Positions 513-23,638 of a stretch of 32,000 nt of DNA are shown here, piece by piece. The position numbers and the translations under genes were made by a program. Positions within the stretch are counted from its first letter, which is position 1. The number at the start of each line of letters is the position of its first letter. Location of the stretch: the NCBI GenBank assembly GCA_934660865.1, contig CAKUIA010000010.1, positions 30,001-62,000 on the forward strand, in the 5' to 3' direction. Below the pieces are notes generated by a model. It saw nothing but the letters and a program-made list of their open reading frames with translations, was not told the origin of the DNA and searched no databases. This DNA is from an uncultured Opitutales bacterium. Lineage in GTDB: Bacteria; Verrucomicrobiota; Verrucomicrobiia; Opitutales; Intestinicryptomonadaceae.

Positions 513-1871
513 CTACTTTAGCAATACATTGTCGAGATATTTCAGCGCGCCGTCTATGTCGAAGAACTTCCCGTCGAGTTGGGCTTCGTAGGCGGCGCTT
601 AAAATTTGCGAAAACTTCGGCGAAGGCTTTAGTTTGCGCTCTATAAGGTGCCTTCCCAGCAATATGGGCTTTGGGGCCGAGTCTTTTATCTTCAGCTCCT
701 CGGCTCTCGACAAAATCCATTCGCCCTGCGGCGAGCTTTCCGTATATTTTTCGGCGCGGCCCTCGCGGTCGGCCTTGTCTATGCGCACAAGCCTGTCTAT
801 GCGGCCCACTTTGTTTGCAAGCCTGCGTATTGCCGAGTCTCCCGCATTCGAGCGCCACAAATCCAAAATAGCCATGTGTCTTTCGACCAAAACTTTTACG
901 CCGTCGAGCAAAACTTTTTCGTCGCTAATGCGCCTTAAAAATTTTTCGGCCACGGGGCCTCCCAAAATGTCGTGCCCAAGCGAGCGTATGCGCCCCGAGG
1001 CGTCTTTTTTTGTGCAGAGGGGTTTGCCCATGTCGTGGCATAAAACGGCAAGGCCCACAATGGTGTCCTCCTTTTCGTCTCCAATGCGGTCGCGCGCAAA
1101 AGAGTCCATGCAAAGCATTGTGTGGGTGTACACATCGCCTTCCGGGTGCCAAACGGGGTCTTGCGGGCAGCCAACCATTGCCGAAAGCTCGGGGAAATAT
1201 TTTACCCACTTGCAGTCCCTTAAAAACGCAAGGCCCCTCGAAATTTTTTTGCCCTTTAAAATAAGCTTTTTAAATTCCTGAAAAATCCTTTCTTTCGGCA
1301 GGTTTTCCATCGGTATTTTCGAGCAAAGCTCCACCGTTTGCGGGGCAACTTCAAAGTCGAAACGCGCGGCAAACTGCATTGCCCTAAGCACGCGCAGGGG
1401 GTCTTCGGCAAACTTGTCGGAGGTGTGCCTTATAATTTTCCCCGCAAGGTCTTTTTGCCCGTCGAAAGGGTCTGTTATTTCGCCGCTTAAAATGTCGCGC
1501 AGCATTGCGTTTATGGTAAAGTCGCGGCGCGAGCACGCCTCTTTCGGCGAAAGGTATGGGTCGCCAATAATGTCGAACGACTTGTGGCCCAGCCCGTTTT
1601 TGCGCTCCTTTCGGGGCATGCTTACGTCTATGTCCAGCCCCTTTAAAATCCACACCCCAAAGCTTTTGCCGACGGCCTCGAAACGGAATTTTTTAGACAA
1701 AATTTCCTCTATCTGCCCGGGGTTTAGGCCGAAAATCTCCACATCGGTATCTTTCGACTTTATCCCCAAAAGCGAGTCTCTTACGCAGCCGCCCACATAG
1801 TAGGCGCGCCCGCCAAAAGCTGCGGCTTGCGTTGCAATATATCGGCACGCGTCTTTGCTACTGAACGTCAT
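513..1871 (-). CDS. cca: CCA-adding tRNA nucleotidyltransferase with HD domain
   Basis: 452 aa. N-terminal class-II nucleotidyltransferase motif YYVGGCVRDSLLG...DTDVEIFG, followed by RRDFTINA and an HD motif (LCHDMGKP). The ATG at 1871 overlaps the upstream Dabb gene by 14 nt. Confidence 0.85.
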   Translation of the reverse strand: MTFSSKDACRYIATQAAAFGGRAYYVGGCVRDSLLGIKSKDTDVEIFGLNPGQIEEILSKKFRFEAVGKSFGVWILKGLDIDVSMPRKERKNGLGHKSFDIIGDPYLSPKEACSRRDFTINAMLRDILSGEITDPFDGQKDLAGKIIRHTSDKFAEDPLRVLRAMQFAARFDFEVAPQTVELCSKIPMENLPKERIFQEFKKLILKGKKISRGLAFLRDCKWVKYFPELSAMVGCPQDPVWHPEGDVYTHTMLCMDSFARDRIGDEKEDTIVGLAVLCHDMGKPLCTKKDASGRIRSLGHDILGGPVAEKFLRRISDEKVLLDGVKVLVERHMAILDLWRSNAGDSAIRRLANKVGRIDRLVRIDKADREGRAEKYTESSPQGEWILSRAEELKIKDSAPKPILLGRHLIERKLKPSPKFSQILSAAYEAQLDGKFFDIDGALKYLDNVLLK

Positions 1872-2153: not shown

Positions 2154-2903
2154 TTATACTATAATTTTAAGGTTTCTGCGCAAATAGGTGGGTATATCCA
2201 AATCTTCGCCGTTGTAGAAATTGCGTTTTGTGTCGCCGAAAAAGCCCCTTTGCTCGGAAAGCGAAACGAAGGGAAATTCGTCTTGCGCGAGGTTCTCGCC
2301 CGAGGCGGCTTTCGGCGTTTGGCTCTTTTGCTCGACGGGCGGAATGTCTTTGGGCTTTGCCCTTGTTATTTTCGACATAAACGAGGCTTTCCTTACTTCG
2401 GGCGCGACTTTTTGCGGGGGTATCGTCTGCACATACTGAAAGGATTTCATTATGTCGTTTTGGCGGAATATTTCGCCCACCGACAAATCGTTTGGCAGGC
2501 AAAGCAGGTTTTCGCAATTCTCCCTAAGGCGGGCAAGAGAGGCTCTAGAATAGTCGTCTATCTTGTTGGCAATGGCGCAAACGGCCAGGCGCCCTATGTT
2601 CATCGTCTTGGCGATTTTTGCGAATGCGGCGGTTAGGTGCGCCGATTTGTCGCCCCCGAATTGCGCCAGCAAAATTATGGTAGAATAGCCCTCTATGCTG
2701 CGTTTTATCGAGGCTATTTGAAGTTGCGCGGCTTCGGGGTCGGCGCTGATTAGCATTTTTTCGCCTATCGAAACGCTTTCCAAGTCGGTCTTGTTGGTTG
2801 AAACCGCGCAGCACGCCGCGTTTTTGAACGCGCCGAGCTTGAGTTTTGAAGCCAAAAACGAGCCGCCTTTGCCCACGCCTATAATCTTTATGTTTGCCGC
2901 CAT
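2154..2903 (-). CDS. ftsZ: Truncated, degenerate FtsZ homologue (249 aa): FtsZ N-terminal-domain-like core, disordered linker and canonical FtsZ C-terminal peptide. No tubulin signature and no C-terminal subdomain.
   Basis: Located immediately after ftsA. I prefer the ATG at 2903 over the track's TTG at 2918, because it forms a TAATG overlap with the ftsA stop and has GGAGGA 8 nt upstream. IKIIGVGKGG, AVSTNKTDL and LLCLPNDL align by eye with E. coli IKVIGVGGGG, AVNTDAQAL and LITIPNDKL. The signature position reads QFGGDKS (2643..2663) instead of GGGTGTG. The C-terminus EDLDIPTYLRRN (2175..2207) matches the FtsZ CTP (DIPAFLR). Confidence 0.75.
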   Translation of the reverse strand: MAANIKIIGVGKGGSFLASKLKLGAFKNAACCAVSTNKTDLESVSIGEKMLISADPEAAQLQIASIKRSIEGYSTIILLAQFGGDKSAHLTAAFAKIAKTMNIGRLAVCAIANKIDDYSRASLARLRENCENLLCLPNDLSVGEIFRQNDIMKSFQYVQTIPPQKVAPEVRKASFMSKITRAKPKDIPPVEQKSQTPKAASGENLAQDEFPFVSLSEQRGFFGDTKRNFYNGEDLDIPTYLRRNLKIIV

Positions 2904-4102
2904 TACAAATTCCTCCAAAGCCCCTTTATTTTCGAGAACAAACCTTCGCCCGAATCCGAGGCGTTGCGGATTTCGTTTTCAAGCGCGTAGTCCAAGAGGC
3001 CCAGCGACGTTGCAAATTCGGGGTGGCAAAGCGAATGTTTTACCCACGAATTGAACTTGCCGGTTGTGCATTTTACGCCCAAAACGCCCTCGGCAAGTTC
3101 GTTTATGCCCGTCAGGCGCGAAGTTCCGCCCGTTATTACAACGCTTTGTATGGTCGAGTCGAAAACCTCGCCAAGCTCGTCCCTTAGTATAAGGAAAAGC
3201 TCTTCGAGCCTTGCCCTTATTATTATGTTCATCGAGTTTAGCGATATTTTCCTGTCGCCTATTTGCTGGTCGCCTTTTGTCCAGATAAATTGCGATTTTT
3301 CGTCTTCGCTTATTACCGCCTTGCCTATTTTGCATTTTAAAAGCTCGGCGTTTTTGTTGTAAAGCCTAAGGCCGTGCGCAAGGTCGTTTGTAATGTGGTC
3401 GCCTCCTACGGGAATGGTGCCGGCTATAACTATCCTTGAATTTTTGTACATTGCATAGTCGGTTGTGCCGCAGCCTATGTCTATAACCAAAACCCCCTCC
3501 TTGCGCTGCTGCATGCTAGTTACCATTCTGGCCGACGCAATCGCCGAAAGCACAATGTCGTCTACCTCCATGCCGAAGCTGCGCACAATGTGCACGGTGT
3601 TGGCAATGGCGTCGCAGTCGTCGTGCACAAGCCAAAATTCGGCGTCTATGCGCCTGGCCCGCTTGCCGACGGGGTCTTGGCAGTATACGCCGTCTATGTA
3701 GTAGCCGCAGCAAATAAAATGTATAAAGGCCCTGTTTTCGGGCAATGTTTTGCTTTTTGCGTCTTCGCAGGCTCTGTCTACGTCTTCCTGCGTTACTATG
3801 TTGTTTGCGCTGCGCACGTTCGCATAGCCCATTGTGCGCATACCCTTTATCTGCGAGCCGCTAATGCCCACATATATCGACTTTGTTTTTATGCTCGTGT
3901 TCTTTTCGGCGTCTAAAATGGCCTCCTGCGCCAACTGCGACGCCTTTTTTAAGTCTACAATGTCGCCTTTTTTTACGCCAGCACTGGGTTTTTGCCCCAT
4001 TCCTATAATGCTTAAAGACTCGCCGTCTACAATTTCCCCCACAAAAACCTGCATTTTCGAGGTTCCTATTTCGAGGGCTGCCACCATTTTGCTGTCGTTC
4101 AT
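2903..4102 (-). CDS. ftsA: Cell division protein FtsA (actin-like ATPase)
   Basis: 399 aa. N-terminal VAALEIGTSKM phosphate-1 motif, DIGCGTTD and ITGGTS actin-fold motifs, and a C-terminal amphipathic helix GLFSKIKGLWRNL (membrane-targeting sequence). Sits in the dcw position between ftsQ and ftsZ. Confidence 0.9.
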   Translation of the reverse strand: MNDSKMVAALEIGTSKMQVFVGEIVDGESLSIIGMGQKPSAGVKKGDIVDLKKASQLAQEAILDAEKNTSIKTKSIYVGISGSQIKGMRTMGYANVRSANNIVTQEDVDRACEDAKSKTLPENRAFIHFICCGYYIDGVYCQDPVGKRARRIDAEFWLVHDDCDAIANTVHIVRSFGMEVDDIVLSAIASARMVTSMQQRKEGVLVIDIGCGTTDYAMYKNSRIVIAGTIPVGGDHITNDLAHGLRLYNKNAELLKCKIGKAVISEDEKSQFIWTKGDQQIGDRKISLNSMNIIIRARLEELFLILRDELGEVFDSTIQSVVITGGTSRLTGINELAEGVLGVKCTTGKFNSWVKHSLCHPEFATSLGLLDYALENEIRNASDSGEGLFSKIKGLWRNL

Positions 4103-20722: not shown

Positions 20723-23539
20723 CTATTTCCTGCGGCGGTATATCGCCAAAGCCAAGGCCAAAGCTCCGAAAATTGCAGCCCATGTTGCGGGTTCGGGAAC
20801 TTCGAATGTTACATACATGCAGCCGTCGGCGTCGCCTTCGGTGAACTTTGCTATGTATTGGTCGCCAGTTGCCTTGTCTATGTATGTATAAGTTGCGCCG
20901 CTGTCGAGGATTTCCTTTAAGAAGGCGTTAGTTATATTTTCCTCTTCGGTAAACGAGAAGAGCAAAGTTTCCATATTCAATATGCCGGCAATGTTGCAGA
21001 ATACAAAGTCTGTCGACAAAATTTCGCCGCTAAGCTTCGAGCCGTCGGTAAGGTTAATCGACACGTCGCTGCCCATGCTAAAGTCGAACATGAACGAAGC
21101 GCCGCTTTCCTTAACAATGTTTGCAACATTCAAACCGTTGCCCGCCGCGCCTAAAAATGCGCCGCTTTTTACGGTAATTGTTGTATTGCCGTCGGTTCTG
21201 TTCATAAGCAACGTGCCTTCGTTTACGGTGGTAGTTCCCTTGTAGGTGTTGTTGCCGCCTAGAACTTGCGTGCCAGTGCCGTTTTTAACAATGTTTACAA
21301 CCTGGGCCGCCTTGCCGGACTCGTCGGAGATGCTGCCTGTATATTTGCCCGAACCGTTAAGGTTTAGCGTGTAGGTAATCCAGTCGGAATTGCCGTCTAG
21401 CTTAATTGTGCCGTAGCCGTTAAGGTTGCCGATATTGGCTGTTTTTTCCACAATGGCGCCGTCTGCACCGGTGTCTTTAAATGCAAATTCAAGCACGCCG
21501 CCGTTGCCCAAGTTTACGTTGTCGAGGTGCGAATAGCCTGTGTAGCCGTTCAACTCGCTTGTGCCAACCGAGCCGATGTGCAACCTTGTGCCTGCGTCTA
21601 GGTTTACGTTTTTAATATGAACTGCGCCCGCTTCGCCCACCGTGGTGTTAACTTCGGTCCAAGCGTAAAGCTCGCCGCCGTAGCCTGCCGAATTTTTTAC
21701 AACCGCGTTTACGGTGTCGATTTCAACGCTCTTTGTGCCGCGTACATTAAAGTAAACTACGCCCGCGCCGTTTATTGCATTTGTAAGCGAAATGTCGTTT
21801 ACGGTAATGCCCTGGTGGCCCGAAACTTCGCTGGAATTTGCCGTGCGAACATTGCCCGTAACTTTTTCGACCAAAAGTTTTGTGCCGGTAAAGTTTTCGG
21901 CGCCAATGCCGCCGTCGGAAACGGAAATGCCGTCTTCTATATTAAGTACGCCTATTTTCGCGCTTACCGTGCTAAAAGTGCTGAGCCAGTGCGACTGCTT
22001 TGCATAGCCCAAAACGTTTATTTTGTCTATAACCAAGGCGTAGTCGTCGCCGTAGTCTTTTTTACCTGTGTTTATACGGAATTCGCCAACTCTGTATGTT
22101 TTTGCGTCGGCGCTTTCGCCGCCCTGGAATGTCAGGTTTTCTATTGTTGCGGGGCCGCCGTTGCTTCTAATTTGGGCGTAGTTGTCGGTAATGCCGTTTG
22201 CTTCGTTTTCGGACGAAACAAGGTTGGTCAATATCGTTATATTCTTTGCCGAGAATGCGCCCGAGTCGGAAACGTAGAACAAGTGGTCTACGCCTTTTGC
22301 ATTTGCATCTCCTTCAACGTCTTTTGCATAGCGCGAAAAACCGCCGCCTATTGTGAGGTTGTCGAACGAAACGTTTGTGCCGTAGATGTCTACATAGCGC
22401 GCGCCTTTGTCGATTGTAGTGTTCTTTTCGCCCGAGCCGTATACTTCAAAATCGGAGAAGTGCGCTGCGTTTGTTTTTGCGTTAAACACAACCCTGCTTG
22501 CGGTTTTGGAATATAGCGAAGAACCTTCCTGGAAGTCTATACCCGCACCGTTTAGGTTGATATAGCCACCGATGTTGTTTATTTTAGAACCGTTTGTAAA
22601 CACCATCTTGCCCGCGTTTGTATTCGAGCCTATTGTGCCTTCGTTGTTGATAACGGCGTTTATGGTGTTGTCGCCCGTATTGTTGTCGATTGCGATTGTG
22701 CCGGTTGACTTGTTGTTTATAACACCCGAAAGCGCTTGGTTGCCCGCATATTGGCTATTTTGAATTACGGTTATTGTGCCGTAGTTATTGAAGTTGTTGC
22801 CTGCGGCAATAAATTCGGTATTAGCCCAAATGTTGATGTTGCCGTAGTTGTTTGTAGAACCCATTACGGCTTTAACTTGCTGATCGGCGTTTTCAAACTG
22901 TTTGCCCTGAATGGTAATGCTGGAGCCTTCGCCAATTTCGTTTACAAACATGTCGCTAATAGTTTCCCACTGTTGCTTTGTTTCGTTGTAAATGGCGTTT
23001 AGCTTTATAAGCGCGCATGTATTTTCAAACTGAAGCGTGCGCGAATTTTCTATGCTTACATAGCCCAAGTCTATAGACTTCCATGCGTGTGTTGTAAGCG
23101 CATTGAGGTTGTCGGGCCTAAAAACAATGTTTTTGTCGCCTCTAACTGTAAGGCCGCCCGTTACGGTGAAGTTGTTGTTTGCATTGTTTACGGCAACAAT
23201 CGCAAAGCTTGAATTGCTTGGTGAAGCTTTTGTGGAATCAAAATCTAACAAAATGCTTGCAACGTTCAATTCGAATCCTTGCGTGTGCATACGGTTCGAG
23301 ACTTGTGTGCCGCCGTCTTCTTCAACAGGGTCGTACGAATCGAATATTAGGTTGTCGTCTTTTGTGGGGACGCGGTTAAGCTTGTTGCCCTCGGCATCGC
23401 GCCAGTTGCTGGCATTTCTGCCGTTGTCGTCGCGCGACCCGTACAGGTAGCGCCAATACATTTCATCTGCTGGAGCGTTTACCGACATTGCCGATACAGC
23501 CGCCGCAACGAATATTGTTTTTAGGTATGATAGTTTCAT
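20723..23539 (-). CDS. Large secreted PEP-CTERM-anchored surface protein with autotransporter-associated beta-strand (PATR) repeat and probable beta-helix
   Basis: I call the start at the ATG at 23539 (MKLSYLKTIFVAAAVSAMSVNAPA signal peptide; 938 aa). The body is N/G/T/S-rich and repetitive, resembling a beta-helix. GTGTQVLGGNNTYKGTTTVNEGTLLMN matches the PATR repeat. The C-terminus VPEPATWAAIFGALALALAIYRRRK is a textbook PEP-CTERM sorting signal (PEP + TM + basic tail). Confidence 0.8.
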   Translation of the reverse strand: MKLSYLKTIFVAAAVSAMSVNAPADEMYWRYLYGSRDDNGRNASNWRDAEGNKLNRVPTKDDNLIFDSYDPVEEDGGTQVSNRMHTQGFELNVASILLDFDSTKASPSNSSFAIVAVNNANNNFTVTGGLTVRGDKNIVFRPDNLNALTTHAWKSIDLGYVSIENSRTLQFENTCALIKLNAIYNETKQQWETISDMFVNEIGEGSSITIQGKQFENADQQVKAVMGSTNNYGNINIWANTEFIAAGNNFNNYGTITVIQNSQYAGNQALSGVINNKSTGTIAIDNNTGDNTINAVINNEGTIGSNTNAGKMVFTNGSKINNIGGYINLNGAGIDFQEGSSLYSKTASRVVFNAKTNAAHFSDFEVYGSGEKNTTIDKGARYVDIYGTNVSFDNLTIGGGFSRYAKDVEGDANAKGVDHLFYVSDSGAFSAKNITILTNLVSSENEANGITDNYAQIRSNGGPATIENLTFQGGESADAKTYRVGEFRINTGKKDYGDDYALVIDKINVLGYAKQSHWLSTFSTVSAKIGVLNIEDGISVSDGGIGAENFTGTKLLVEKVTGNVRTANSSEVSGHQGITVNDISLTNAINGAGVVYFNVRGTKSVEIDTVNAVVKNSAGYGGELYAWTEVNTTVGEAGAVHIKNVNLDAGTRLHIGSVGTSELNGYTGYSHLDNVNLGNGGVLEFAFKDTGADGAIVEKTANIGNLNGYGTIKLDGNSDWITYTLNLNGSGKYTGSISDESGKAAQVVNIVKNGTGTQVLGGNNTYKGTTTVNEGTLLMNRTDGNTTITVKSGAFLGAAGNGLNVANIVKESGASFMFDFSMGSDVSINLTDGSKLSGEILSTDFVFCNIAGILNMETLLFSFTEEENITNAFLKEILDSGATYTYIDKATGDQYIAKFTEGDADGCMYVTFEVPEPATWAAIFGALALALAIYRRRK

Positions 23540-23638
23540 TGTTGTGTAAGTTAAATATAGTGGGAAGTTTGAATTTAACAAAAGGAAAGTAGGCTTTTGA
23601 TTTTGTAAAGTCAACCGAATTTTTGATACAGCAGGTTA

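Follow-up and report, generated by a model that had tools for sequence, protein, structure and literature searches.

A short ftsZ-derived gene at the end of the dcw cluster

We analyzed a 32,000-nucleotide stretch of DNA from an uncultured Opitutales bacterium of the phylum Verrucomicrobiota (contig CAKUIA010000010.1, positions 30,001 to 62,000), which is referred to as the window throughout. The window harbors a complete division and cell wall (dcw) gene cluster in the order mraZ, rsmH, ftsI, murE, murF, mraY, murD, a LysM gene, ftsW, murG, murC, ddl, ftsQ, ftsA, and a short ftsZ. This last gene, located immediately 3′ of ftsA and thereby in the position of ftsZ at the 3′-end of the dcw cluster, is the subject of the present study. 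Its open reading frame (ORF) encodes 249 amino acids (aa), as compared with 390 to 435 aa in full-length FtsZ. An initial annotation of the sequence had described the protein as an FtsZ homolog that lost its GTPase but kept a C-terminal peptide (CTP) for docking onto FtsA, and the ORF, the peptide, and the membrane helix of FtsA were all found at the positions it had given (Table 1).

The short protein falls below all curated FtsZ thresholds. It scored 33.3 bits against TIGR00065 (cut-off 295.2; aa 3-160 matched), which corresponds to about 10% of the family cut-off, and 18 bits against the Pfam family Tubulin (PF00091; cut-off 33), while the Pfam scan yielded no match to PF12327. FtsZ chains in the PDB matched with an E-value of ~2e-4, aligning aa 3-164 with FtsZ residues 18-198. 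A clade-specific hidden Markov model (HMM) of 399 positions, for which 220 full-length FtsZs of related Verrucomicrobiota were used, matched the protein in two pieces, namely at positions 8-184 and 330-397. No remnant of the intervening positions 185-329, which span the remainder of helix H7, the T7 loop, and the C-terminal subdomain in full, was present in the protein or in any of the six reading frames, either of the window or of four homologous loci belonging to the three lineages with the short form. A split gene with a separately encoded C-terminal domain nearby was rejected, since no trace of it was present in any of these frames.

As judged from structure prediction, the remaining N-terminal portion adopts the Rossmann-like fold of the Tubulin/FtsZ N-terminal domain. 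AlphaFold2 (AF2) modeled aa 1-148 with a predicted local distance difference test (pLDDT) score of 77-95 as six strands alternating with helices, and a Foldseek search against the PDB returned exclusively FtsZ among the best 50 matches (top E-value 2.5e-9). The nucleotide-binding motifs were compared in a MAFFT alignment of the N-domain only; a global hmmalign had placed the tail alone. Neither the tubulin signature GGGTG[ST]G (T4) nor the T3 and T5 loops are present, and the T7 synergy loop (NxDxxD) is absent together with the C-terminal subdomain. The three glycines of the T1 remnant (G9, G11, and G14) are invariant in the short family, and Q81, F82, and D85 of the segment in place of T4 are invariant among seven short sequences. 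Family scores, HMM coverage, and motif losses thus bear out the notion that the GTPase is gone. From these losses we infer that the short protein should neither bind nor hydrolyze guanosine triphosphate (GTP). Moreover, it possesses no T7-containing bottom face and its top face appears destroyed, which would preclude head-to-tail polymerization as well as capping; having lost the nucleotide loops and both longitudinal interfaces, the protein would be unable to act as a treadmilling filament.

The core is followed by the start of helix H7 and by a linker, the whole region of aa 149-209 being predicted by AF2 to be disordered. The initial annotation had drawn the low-complexity linker as a segment of ~70 aa (aa 161-232), followed by a conserved tail of ~15 aa. 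This assignment holds for aa 161-203, where the fraction of P, K, Q, and S residues is 0.49. In contrast, aa 204-232 are aromatic-rich and strongly conserved and hence belong to a C-terminal module, which comprises 46 aa instead of ~15 and includes a motif that precedes the CTP. Within the variable linker, a semi-conserved motif, SF[MI][SD]K[IL]..[KR]KPK (aa 174-184; 2352..2384, minus strand), contains the invariant residues S174 and K183 as well as the semi-conserved K178 and I179. It has no confident AF2 structure and could represent a short amphipathic or binding element.

The C-terminal module follows the consensus QDEFxFxxLxEQRGFFxDTxRNxYNGxDLD[IV]PTYLR[RK]N[LI]KIxx, also written QDEFxF..EQRGFF.DT.RN.YNGEDLDIPTYLRR, which is shared with canonical relatives, and matches positions 330-397 of the clade FtsZ HMM with an E-value of ~6e-21. 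The C-terminal ~45-70 aa alone match full-length FtsZ of Opitutales and Puniceicoccales (E ~1e-17 to 1e-21), and the matches of the short protein to these sequences (E 1e-17 and better) rest almost wholly on the module. The ORF terminates in ...NGEDLDIPTYLRRNLKIIV; GEDLDIPTYLRRNLKIIV is encoded at 2157..2210 and EDLDIPTYLRR at 2175..2207, both on the minus strand. Translation of the window in six frames yields a single occurrence of the pattern D[IL]Px[FY]LR, compared with 0.01 expected from shuffled sequences. In an alignment of 56 sequences D234, L235, D236, P238, T239, and R242 are invariant. The variable tail RNLKIIV (aa 243-249), which shares aa 243 with the core peptide DLDIPTYLRR, places seven residues after R242, and exactly this number is found in every short-family member. 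The single pattern match and the similarity to full-length FtsZ substantiate the earlier assignment of this segment to the conserved FtsZ CTP, and the protein displays the FtsZ arrangement of a disordered linker followed by a conserved C-terminal peptide.

The adjacent ftsA gene encodes a canonical FtsA with a TIGR01174 score above the cut-off, the SHS2 (1C) domain, and a C-terminal amphipathic helix. The best 11-mer of this helix ranks third among 389 windows in FtsA with regard to hydrophobic moment, and its equivalents rank first in two other lineages; the helix is kept in all lineages, in line with the earlier claim that FtsA retains its membrane-targeting element. R298 and E301 of FtsA, invariant in 10 FtsA sequences, align with R300 and E303 of E. 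coli FtsA, two residues with a role in FtsZ binding. In model bacteria, the peptide of the module docks FtsZ onto subdomain 2B of FtsA. According to a paper that quotes the structure of the Thermotoga maritima FtsA-peptide complex, FtsA holds the FtsZ peptide by three salt bridges, to which an Asp and an Arg, both conserved, and the C-terminal carboxylate contribute, and the variable region has seven residues (PMC3418248). At the sequence level, the short protein has the corresponding residues, D236 and R242, and the same tail length as that given for T. maritima. An AF2 model of FtsA fused to the last 100 aa, computed from an alignment with C-terminal homologs as its only rows and none for FtsA, reached a mean pLDDT of 43 with FtsA unfolded.

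Table 1. Positions in the window of the short ftsZ gene, its parts, and surrounding features
Feature	Position	Strand	Basis or remark
Short ftsZ-derived coding sequence	2154..2903	-	249 aa from ATG; stop codon 2154..2156
Folded core, aa 1-148, predicted FtsZ N-terminal domain of Rossmann-like fold, devoid of functional nucleotide loops	2460..2903	-	AF2, Foldseek, motif alignment
T1, canonical GxGGxG, here GxGKGG, partly retained; remnant GVGKGG, aa 9-14	2862..2879	-	N-domain alignment
T2, canonical NTD, here STN/SND (STN in the window protein)			N-domain alignment
T3, canonical GLGAGG, deleted, 14 aa (8 aa in one lineage)			N-domain alignment
T4, canonical GGGTGSG, here FG[GD]D[KN]S (FGGDKSA in the window); AQFGGDKS, aa 80-87	2643..2666	-	
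T5, canonical PFxFEG, deleted, 5 aa			N-domain alignment
T6, canonical PND, variable			N-domain alignment
Leftover of the start of helix H7, aa 149-160	2424..2459	-	alignment; AF2 low confidence
Variable disordered P/K/Q/S-rich linker, aa 161-203 (~43 aa)	2295..2423	-	AF2 pLDDT <50; composition; lineage identity
Conserved C-terminal module, aa 204-249 (46 aa)	2157..2294	-	identity, clade HMM, dN
Core C-terminal peptide DLDIPTYLRR, aa 234-243	2175..2204	-	56-sequence alignment
TAATG, ftsA stop codon overlapping the short ftsZ start codon	2901..2905	-	
ftsA, 399 aa	2903..4102	-	TIGR01174 276 bits (cut-off 175.85); Pfam FtsA, SHS2_FTSA (PF02491); stop codon 2903..2905
FtsA C-terminal amphipathic helix GLFSKIKGLWRNL	2906..2944	-	hydrophobic moment
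FtsA R298..E301 (subdomain 2B)	3200..3211	-	aligned to E. coli FtsA R300/E303 via 7q6d
Dabb-domain gene, 96 aa	1858..2148	-	Pfam; starts 5 nt downstream of short ftsZ
PolyA_pol/CCA-type nucleotidyltransferase gene	513..1871	-	
murC, 405 aa	5894..7114	-	weak Mur ligase match
LysM gene, 400 aa	9376..10578	-	three LysM repeats
ORF of 963 aa upstream of mraZ	20723..23614	-	PATR match

Purifying selection and restriction to a single clade

The ratio of nonsynonymous to synonymous substitutions (dN/dS) was determined mainly by comparing the window with an allele diverged by ~12% (L001, 10001..10750). It amounted to 0.018 for the core (dS 0.92), 0.10 for the linker (dS 0.65), and 0 for the C-terminal tail (dN = 0; dS 0.20). 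In two other lineages, values of 0.077 and 0.16, the latter obtained near dS saturation, were found for the core, and 0.052 and 0.026 for the tail. The ratio is thus far below 1 in every region, ranging from 0.02 to 0.16 in the core and from 0 to 0.05 in the tail, with ~0.1 in the linker. With a value of 0.032 for the whole gene (overall range 0.03-0.12), short ftsZ is the second most constrained of nine genes compared, i.e., seven dcw genes and the two downstream genes. Only ftsA is more constrained (0.009), whereas ftsW, murG, ftsQ, ddl, murC, and the two downstream genes yielded 0.045-0.116. In the comparison of the window (2157..2903) with L001, we also observed a very uneven synonymous divergence: dS was 0.375 for the adjacent ftsA, while within the short gene it ranged from 0.92 for the core to 0.20 for the final 44 codons. 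This unevenness could arise from recombination, from a constraint on codon usage, or from an overlapping signal for the downstream gene.

Across the three deep lineages, the C-terminal module is the best-kept part of the protein (70-74% identity, and 54-60% to full-length relatives); identity amounts to 30-43% in the core and to 15-23% in the linker. In every independent assembly and at every locus found by tblastn, which extends beyond exact protein look-up, an intact ORF of 243-249 aa is present, and no disruptions were encountered. The core evolves faster than FtsA over deep time (33-43% versus 48-67% identity between lineages), unlike in a canonical pair, where the FtsZ core and FtsA are equal in this respect (52% versus 50%). 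This indicates that the core is relaxed relative to a working FtsZ, yet far from neutral. The initial annotation had regarded the gene as selected, and this view is sustained by the intact loci and the low ratios. Its picture of a conserved interaction peptide amid decaying catalytic motifs needs to be widened: both are observed, but constraint is not confined to the peptide, and the strong purifying selection on the core argues against a gene kept merely as a peptide carrier. Strong purifying selection thus marks the short FtsZ as a repurposed protein instead of a dead gene.

Among 1.84 billion representative sequences searched exhaustively with HMMER, just three clusters at 50% identity have this architecture (249, 248, and 243 aa), and a profile search retrieved six clusters at 90% identity. 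A scan of the GTDB species genomes, which employed patterns specific for the short family and was thus blind to a second, canonical FtsZ, identified three species with the short FtsZ. All of them are labeled as metagenome-assembled genomes (MAGs) of Opitutales, and one originates from Hadza human-gut samples. In all three deep lineages the gene order is ftsQ, ftsA, short ftsZ, Dabb, and PolyA_pol. The closest full-length FtsZs (P0051 and P0302), which stem from different assemblies, are encoded after ftsA within the same dcw arrangement, in which the LysM gene and a short, unfused murC likewise occur. The short ftsZ is the positional ortholog of ftsZ. In a neighbor-joining tree of FtsA, Ddl, and FtsQ (968 columns) the short-FtsZ lineages are monophyletic with 100% bootstrap support and form the sister group of these two full-length lineages, which points to one truncation event that has been retained since. 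Taken together, these searches show that the architecture is limited to one monophyletic clade of uncultured Opitutales. No account of it was found in the literature searched, which included PMC5147048, PMC12283558, PMC5698493, and bioRxiv 10.1101/412759. According to reviews and a 2025 essentiality study (PMC5147048, PMC12283558), canonical ftsZ is kept in Verrucomicrobiota, and the gene has been lost in Chlamydiota and Planctomycetota only.

Several further observations concern the neighborhood of the gene. The Dabb (stress-responsive A/B barrel) gene, which overlaps the PolyA_pol/CCA-type nucleotidyltransferase gene, forms with it a pair located 3′ of ftsZ in every short-FtsZ lineage (window, L001, L007, L010, L016, and L017). 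At the full-length ftsZ loci for which the downstream region is available (L015, L019, and L020) the pair does not follow ftsZ, suggesting that it entered the operon at about the time of truncation. The protein with three LysM repeats encoded between murD and ftsW is conserved in the short-FtsZ clade and in the sister loci L019 and L020. MurC is unfused and matches the Mur ligases weakly (Mur_ligase_M, 38 bits, with no match to the N-terminal catalytic domain), and among the nine genes compared, that of MurC shows the weakest constraint (dN/dS 0.116). In the more distantly related L015, a MurC-MurB fusion of 721 aa is encoded. The only match of the 963-aa ORF is to the passenger-associated transport repeat (PATR), and it possibly encodes an autotransporter-like surface protein.

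Likewise, some FtsZ relatives show peculiarities of their own. Full-length sister FtsZs (L019, 10001..11179; P0051, P0296, P0297, P0301, P0127, P0065, and P0305) match PF00091 but not PF12327 in precomputed Pfam annotations. Their C-terminal domain may thus be unusually divergent already, as would be expected if the constraint on FtsZ had loosened throughout the family before the truncation. In full-length FtsZ of Opitutales and Puniceicoccales (P0010, P0013, P0024, P0050, P0051, and P0200) the T7 loop reads N[VLH]DF[SAN][ST]L, with Ser/Thr where E. coli has Asp212. An unrelated short FtsZ-like protein of 304 aa (P0179) is devoid of the T3 loop, keeps a T7-like NVD motif, and ends in a different tail; it may represent another independent FtsZ reduction.

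A proposed FtsA-docked adaptor and the alternatives

We favor the view, with a probability of roughly 0.6, that the short protein derives from FtsZ, does not polymerize, and has been kept as an adaptor or regulator docked on FtsA. In this scenario, a single ancestral event would have removed ~145 residues, taking away the rest of H7 and the T7 synergy loop along with the complete C-terminal subdomain, while T3 and T5 were also deleted and T2 and T4 substituted. The parts left are a well-folded pseudo-GTPase domain under selection and the ancestral C-terminal module of 46 aa, with a flexible linker between the two. The protein would be made together with FtsA, most likely by co-translation given the overlapping stop and start codons, and would most likely sit on membrane-bound FtsA via its tail. 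Docked in this way, it would most likely serve the divisome of FtsA, FtsQ, FtsW, and FtsI as an adaptor or regulator, with the cytoskeletal function having been lost or taken over. The chances appear evenly balanced for the farther-reaching proposal that the short protein is the sole FtsZ/tubulin homolog in these genomes, so that the clade would divide with FtsA, FtsQ, FtsW, and FtsI but without a polymerizing FtsZ, the FtsZ remnant serving as FtsA-bound adaptor.

Several points weigh against the adaptor view. The binding to FtsA is predicted from homology, and the loss of GTP binding is deduced from motifs. Furthermore, the former nucleotide face harbors no significant excess of invariant core residues (10/48 versus 15/100, p = 0.48), and, as they do not cluster significantly there, the notion of a repurposed nucleotide pocket was dropped. 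The coupling of ftsA and ftsZ is ancestral in the family and hence uninformative on the short form specifically: at the sister loci with full-length ftsZ the gap between both genes is just 2-3 bp. For the same reason, we rejected the coupling as a sign of a new stoichiometry between FtsA and the short FtsZ.

A canonical ftsZ residing elsewhere in the genome would likewise count against a sole relic. The short protein would then be a non-polymerizing competitor or modulator, which might, e.g., compete with FtsZ for CTP-binding sites on FtsA and other partners and thereby tune the attachment of the Z-ring, a logic comparable to that of the plant protein ARC3. Such a second copy would have made an internal deletion in an essential gene easier to survive, the tail, being of the same type as in canonical relatives, would compete for the same sites, and the GTDB scan with short-family patterns could not have seen it. 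On the other hand, it is the short gene that holds the orthologous dcw slot, and five of the six closest full-length FtsZs examined (P0200, P0202, P0051, P0302, and P0305) follow ftsA, all six being located in other assemblies; the sixth (P0298) lies on a contig of 3.4 kb, where the gene called upstream encodes a 66-aa fragment in opposite orientation. The surroundings of the gene, of which 20-32 kb were available, contained no FtsZ-like sequence in any lineage, and none of the NCBI accessions of named Opitutales FtsZ matches fell within the ranges of the short-FtsZ MAGs, although none of these checks amounts to a whole-genome test. In addition, a duplicate FtsZ in Verrucomicrobiota is unreported in the literature searched, and with both longitudinal interfaces gone the short protein could not cap or co-polymerize with FtsZ. 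On balance, a role beside a canonical FtsZ is the main rival, and we consider it less likely than the favored view.

It is more doubtful still that the protein forms a nucleotide-dependent polymer via new interfaces, with the remodeled loops (AQFG.D..S, K114, and the T1 remnant) binding a nucleotide or another ligand. Although the T1 glycines are kept, new family-specific invariant residues have appeared at the T4 and T5 positions, and the core is strongly constrained, T3 and T5 are deleted, the base-contacting H7 and the T7/C-terminal domain are absent, and the invariant residues are not significantly concentrated on the nucleotide face. A decaying pseudogene or relic, open by chance or through polar effects on downstream genes, might be suspected from the loss of the catalytic motifs and of a whole domain and from a core that is more diverged between lineages than FtsA. 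This reading is refuted by the selection analysis: the dN/dS of the core is 0.02-0.16 at a dS of 0.7-1.0, the frame has stayed intact at similar length in all lineages and assemblies despite the divergence of FtsA, and AF2 predicts a confident fold. Finally, apart from the unusual length nothing speaks for a chimeric contig or a mis-called frame, an artefact that is refuted by the recovery of the same ORF from dozens of independent assemblies (ENA, Logan, JGI, and NCBI) in three lineages.

If the short protein is indeed an FtsA-docked remnant without a canonical counterpart, the clade would represent a living intermediate toward the complete loss of FtsZ known from Chlamydiota and Planctomycetota. 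In it, the tethering-hub function of FtsZ would have been separated naturally from its filament function. A peptidoglycan-walled clade of Verrucomicrobiota, with at least one lineage in the human gut, would then divide without an FtsZ filament. FtsZ is regarded as essential and almost universal, and among the phyla of the Planctomycetes-Verrucomicrobia-Chlamydiae (PVC) group, Verrucomicrobiota are named as the one that keeps canonical ftsZ (PMC12283558). The short gene bears on how PVC bacteria came to divide without FtsZ, the clade possibly being an intermediate stage, and on functions of FtsZ that do not depend on polymerization, with hub or tether roles and the regulation of FtsA as candidates. 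Moreover, the analysis defines a conserved C-terminal module of 46 aa in Opitutales FtsZ, which is larger than the classical peptide.

Comparison with known systems

The canonical FtsZ of the sister Opitutales (P0051 and P0302) shares with the short protein the locus after ftsA, the dcw arrangement including the LysM gene, the N-domain fold, and a disordered linker followed by a C-terminal module with DLD[IV]PT[YF][LM]R[RK]. It differs in that the short protein is devoid of T3, T5, T7, H7, and the C-terminal subdomain, and in that the tubulin signature is replaced. The isolated N-terminal domain of FtsZ made in the laboratory folds independently and still binds GTP. Its ability to fold by itself is consistent with the confident AF2 model of the short core; unlike this construct, the short protein has lost the binding loops and carries its native tail.

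Truncated FtsZ paralogs are known from Alphaproteobacteria, namely FtsZ3 and FtsZ1 of A. tumefaciens, FtsZ2 of S. meliloti, and FtsZm of Magnetospirillum, of which A. tumefaciens FtsZ3 has a partial GTPase domain, is dispensable, and is diffuse in the cell (bioRxiv 10.1101/412759). Like the short Opitutales protein, they are natural members of the FtsZ family that miss part of the canonical architecture. However, they are extra copies encoded outside the dcw cluster beside an essential canonical FtsZ (bioRxiv 10.1101/412759), and their GTPase sequence is well conserved (48-49% identity to E. coli), whereas the linker and the C-terminal peptide are lacking. Compared with their published description, the short Opitutales FtsZ is not a truncated paralog of this type but the reverse, with a degenerate core, a retained linker and peptide, and a place in the dcw cluster.

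The nearest conceptual analog is ARC3 of plant chloroplasts, a division regulator with an FtsZ-like domain devoid of the GTPase motifs. In both proteins, a domain derived from FtsZ is devoid of the nucleotide motifs, and a division role other than that of a polymer would likewise be common to them. In contrast to the short protein, ARC3 is eukaryotic, targeted to plastids, and fused to MORN repeats, has no FtsA-binding peptide, and acts on the co-existing FtsZ1 and FtsZ2.

Within the same superphylum, Chlamydiota and Planctomycetota divide without FtsZ (PMC5147048, PMC12283558). As would also apply to the short-FtsZ clade, they have lost the cytoskeletal function of FtsZ while dcw and peptidoglycan genes remain. 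In these phyla, however, the gene has been lost entirely, whereas the short-FtsZ clade keeps a selected remnant with a predicted FtsA-docking tail.

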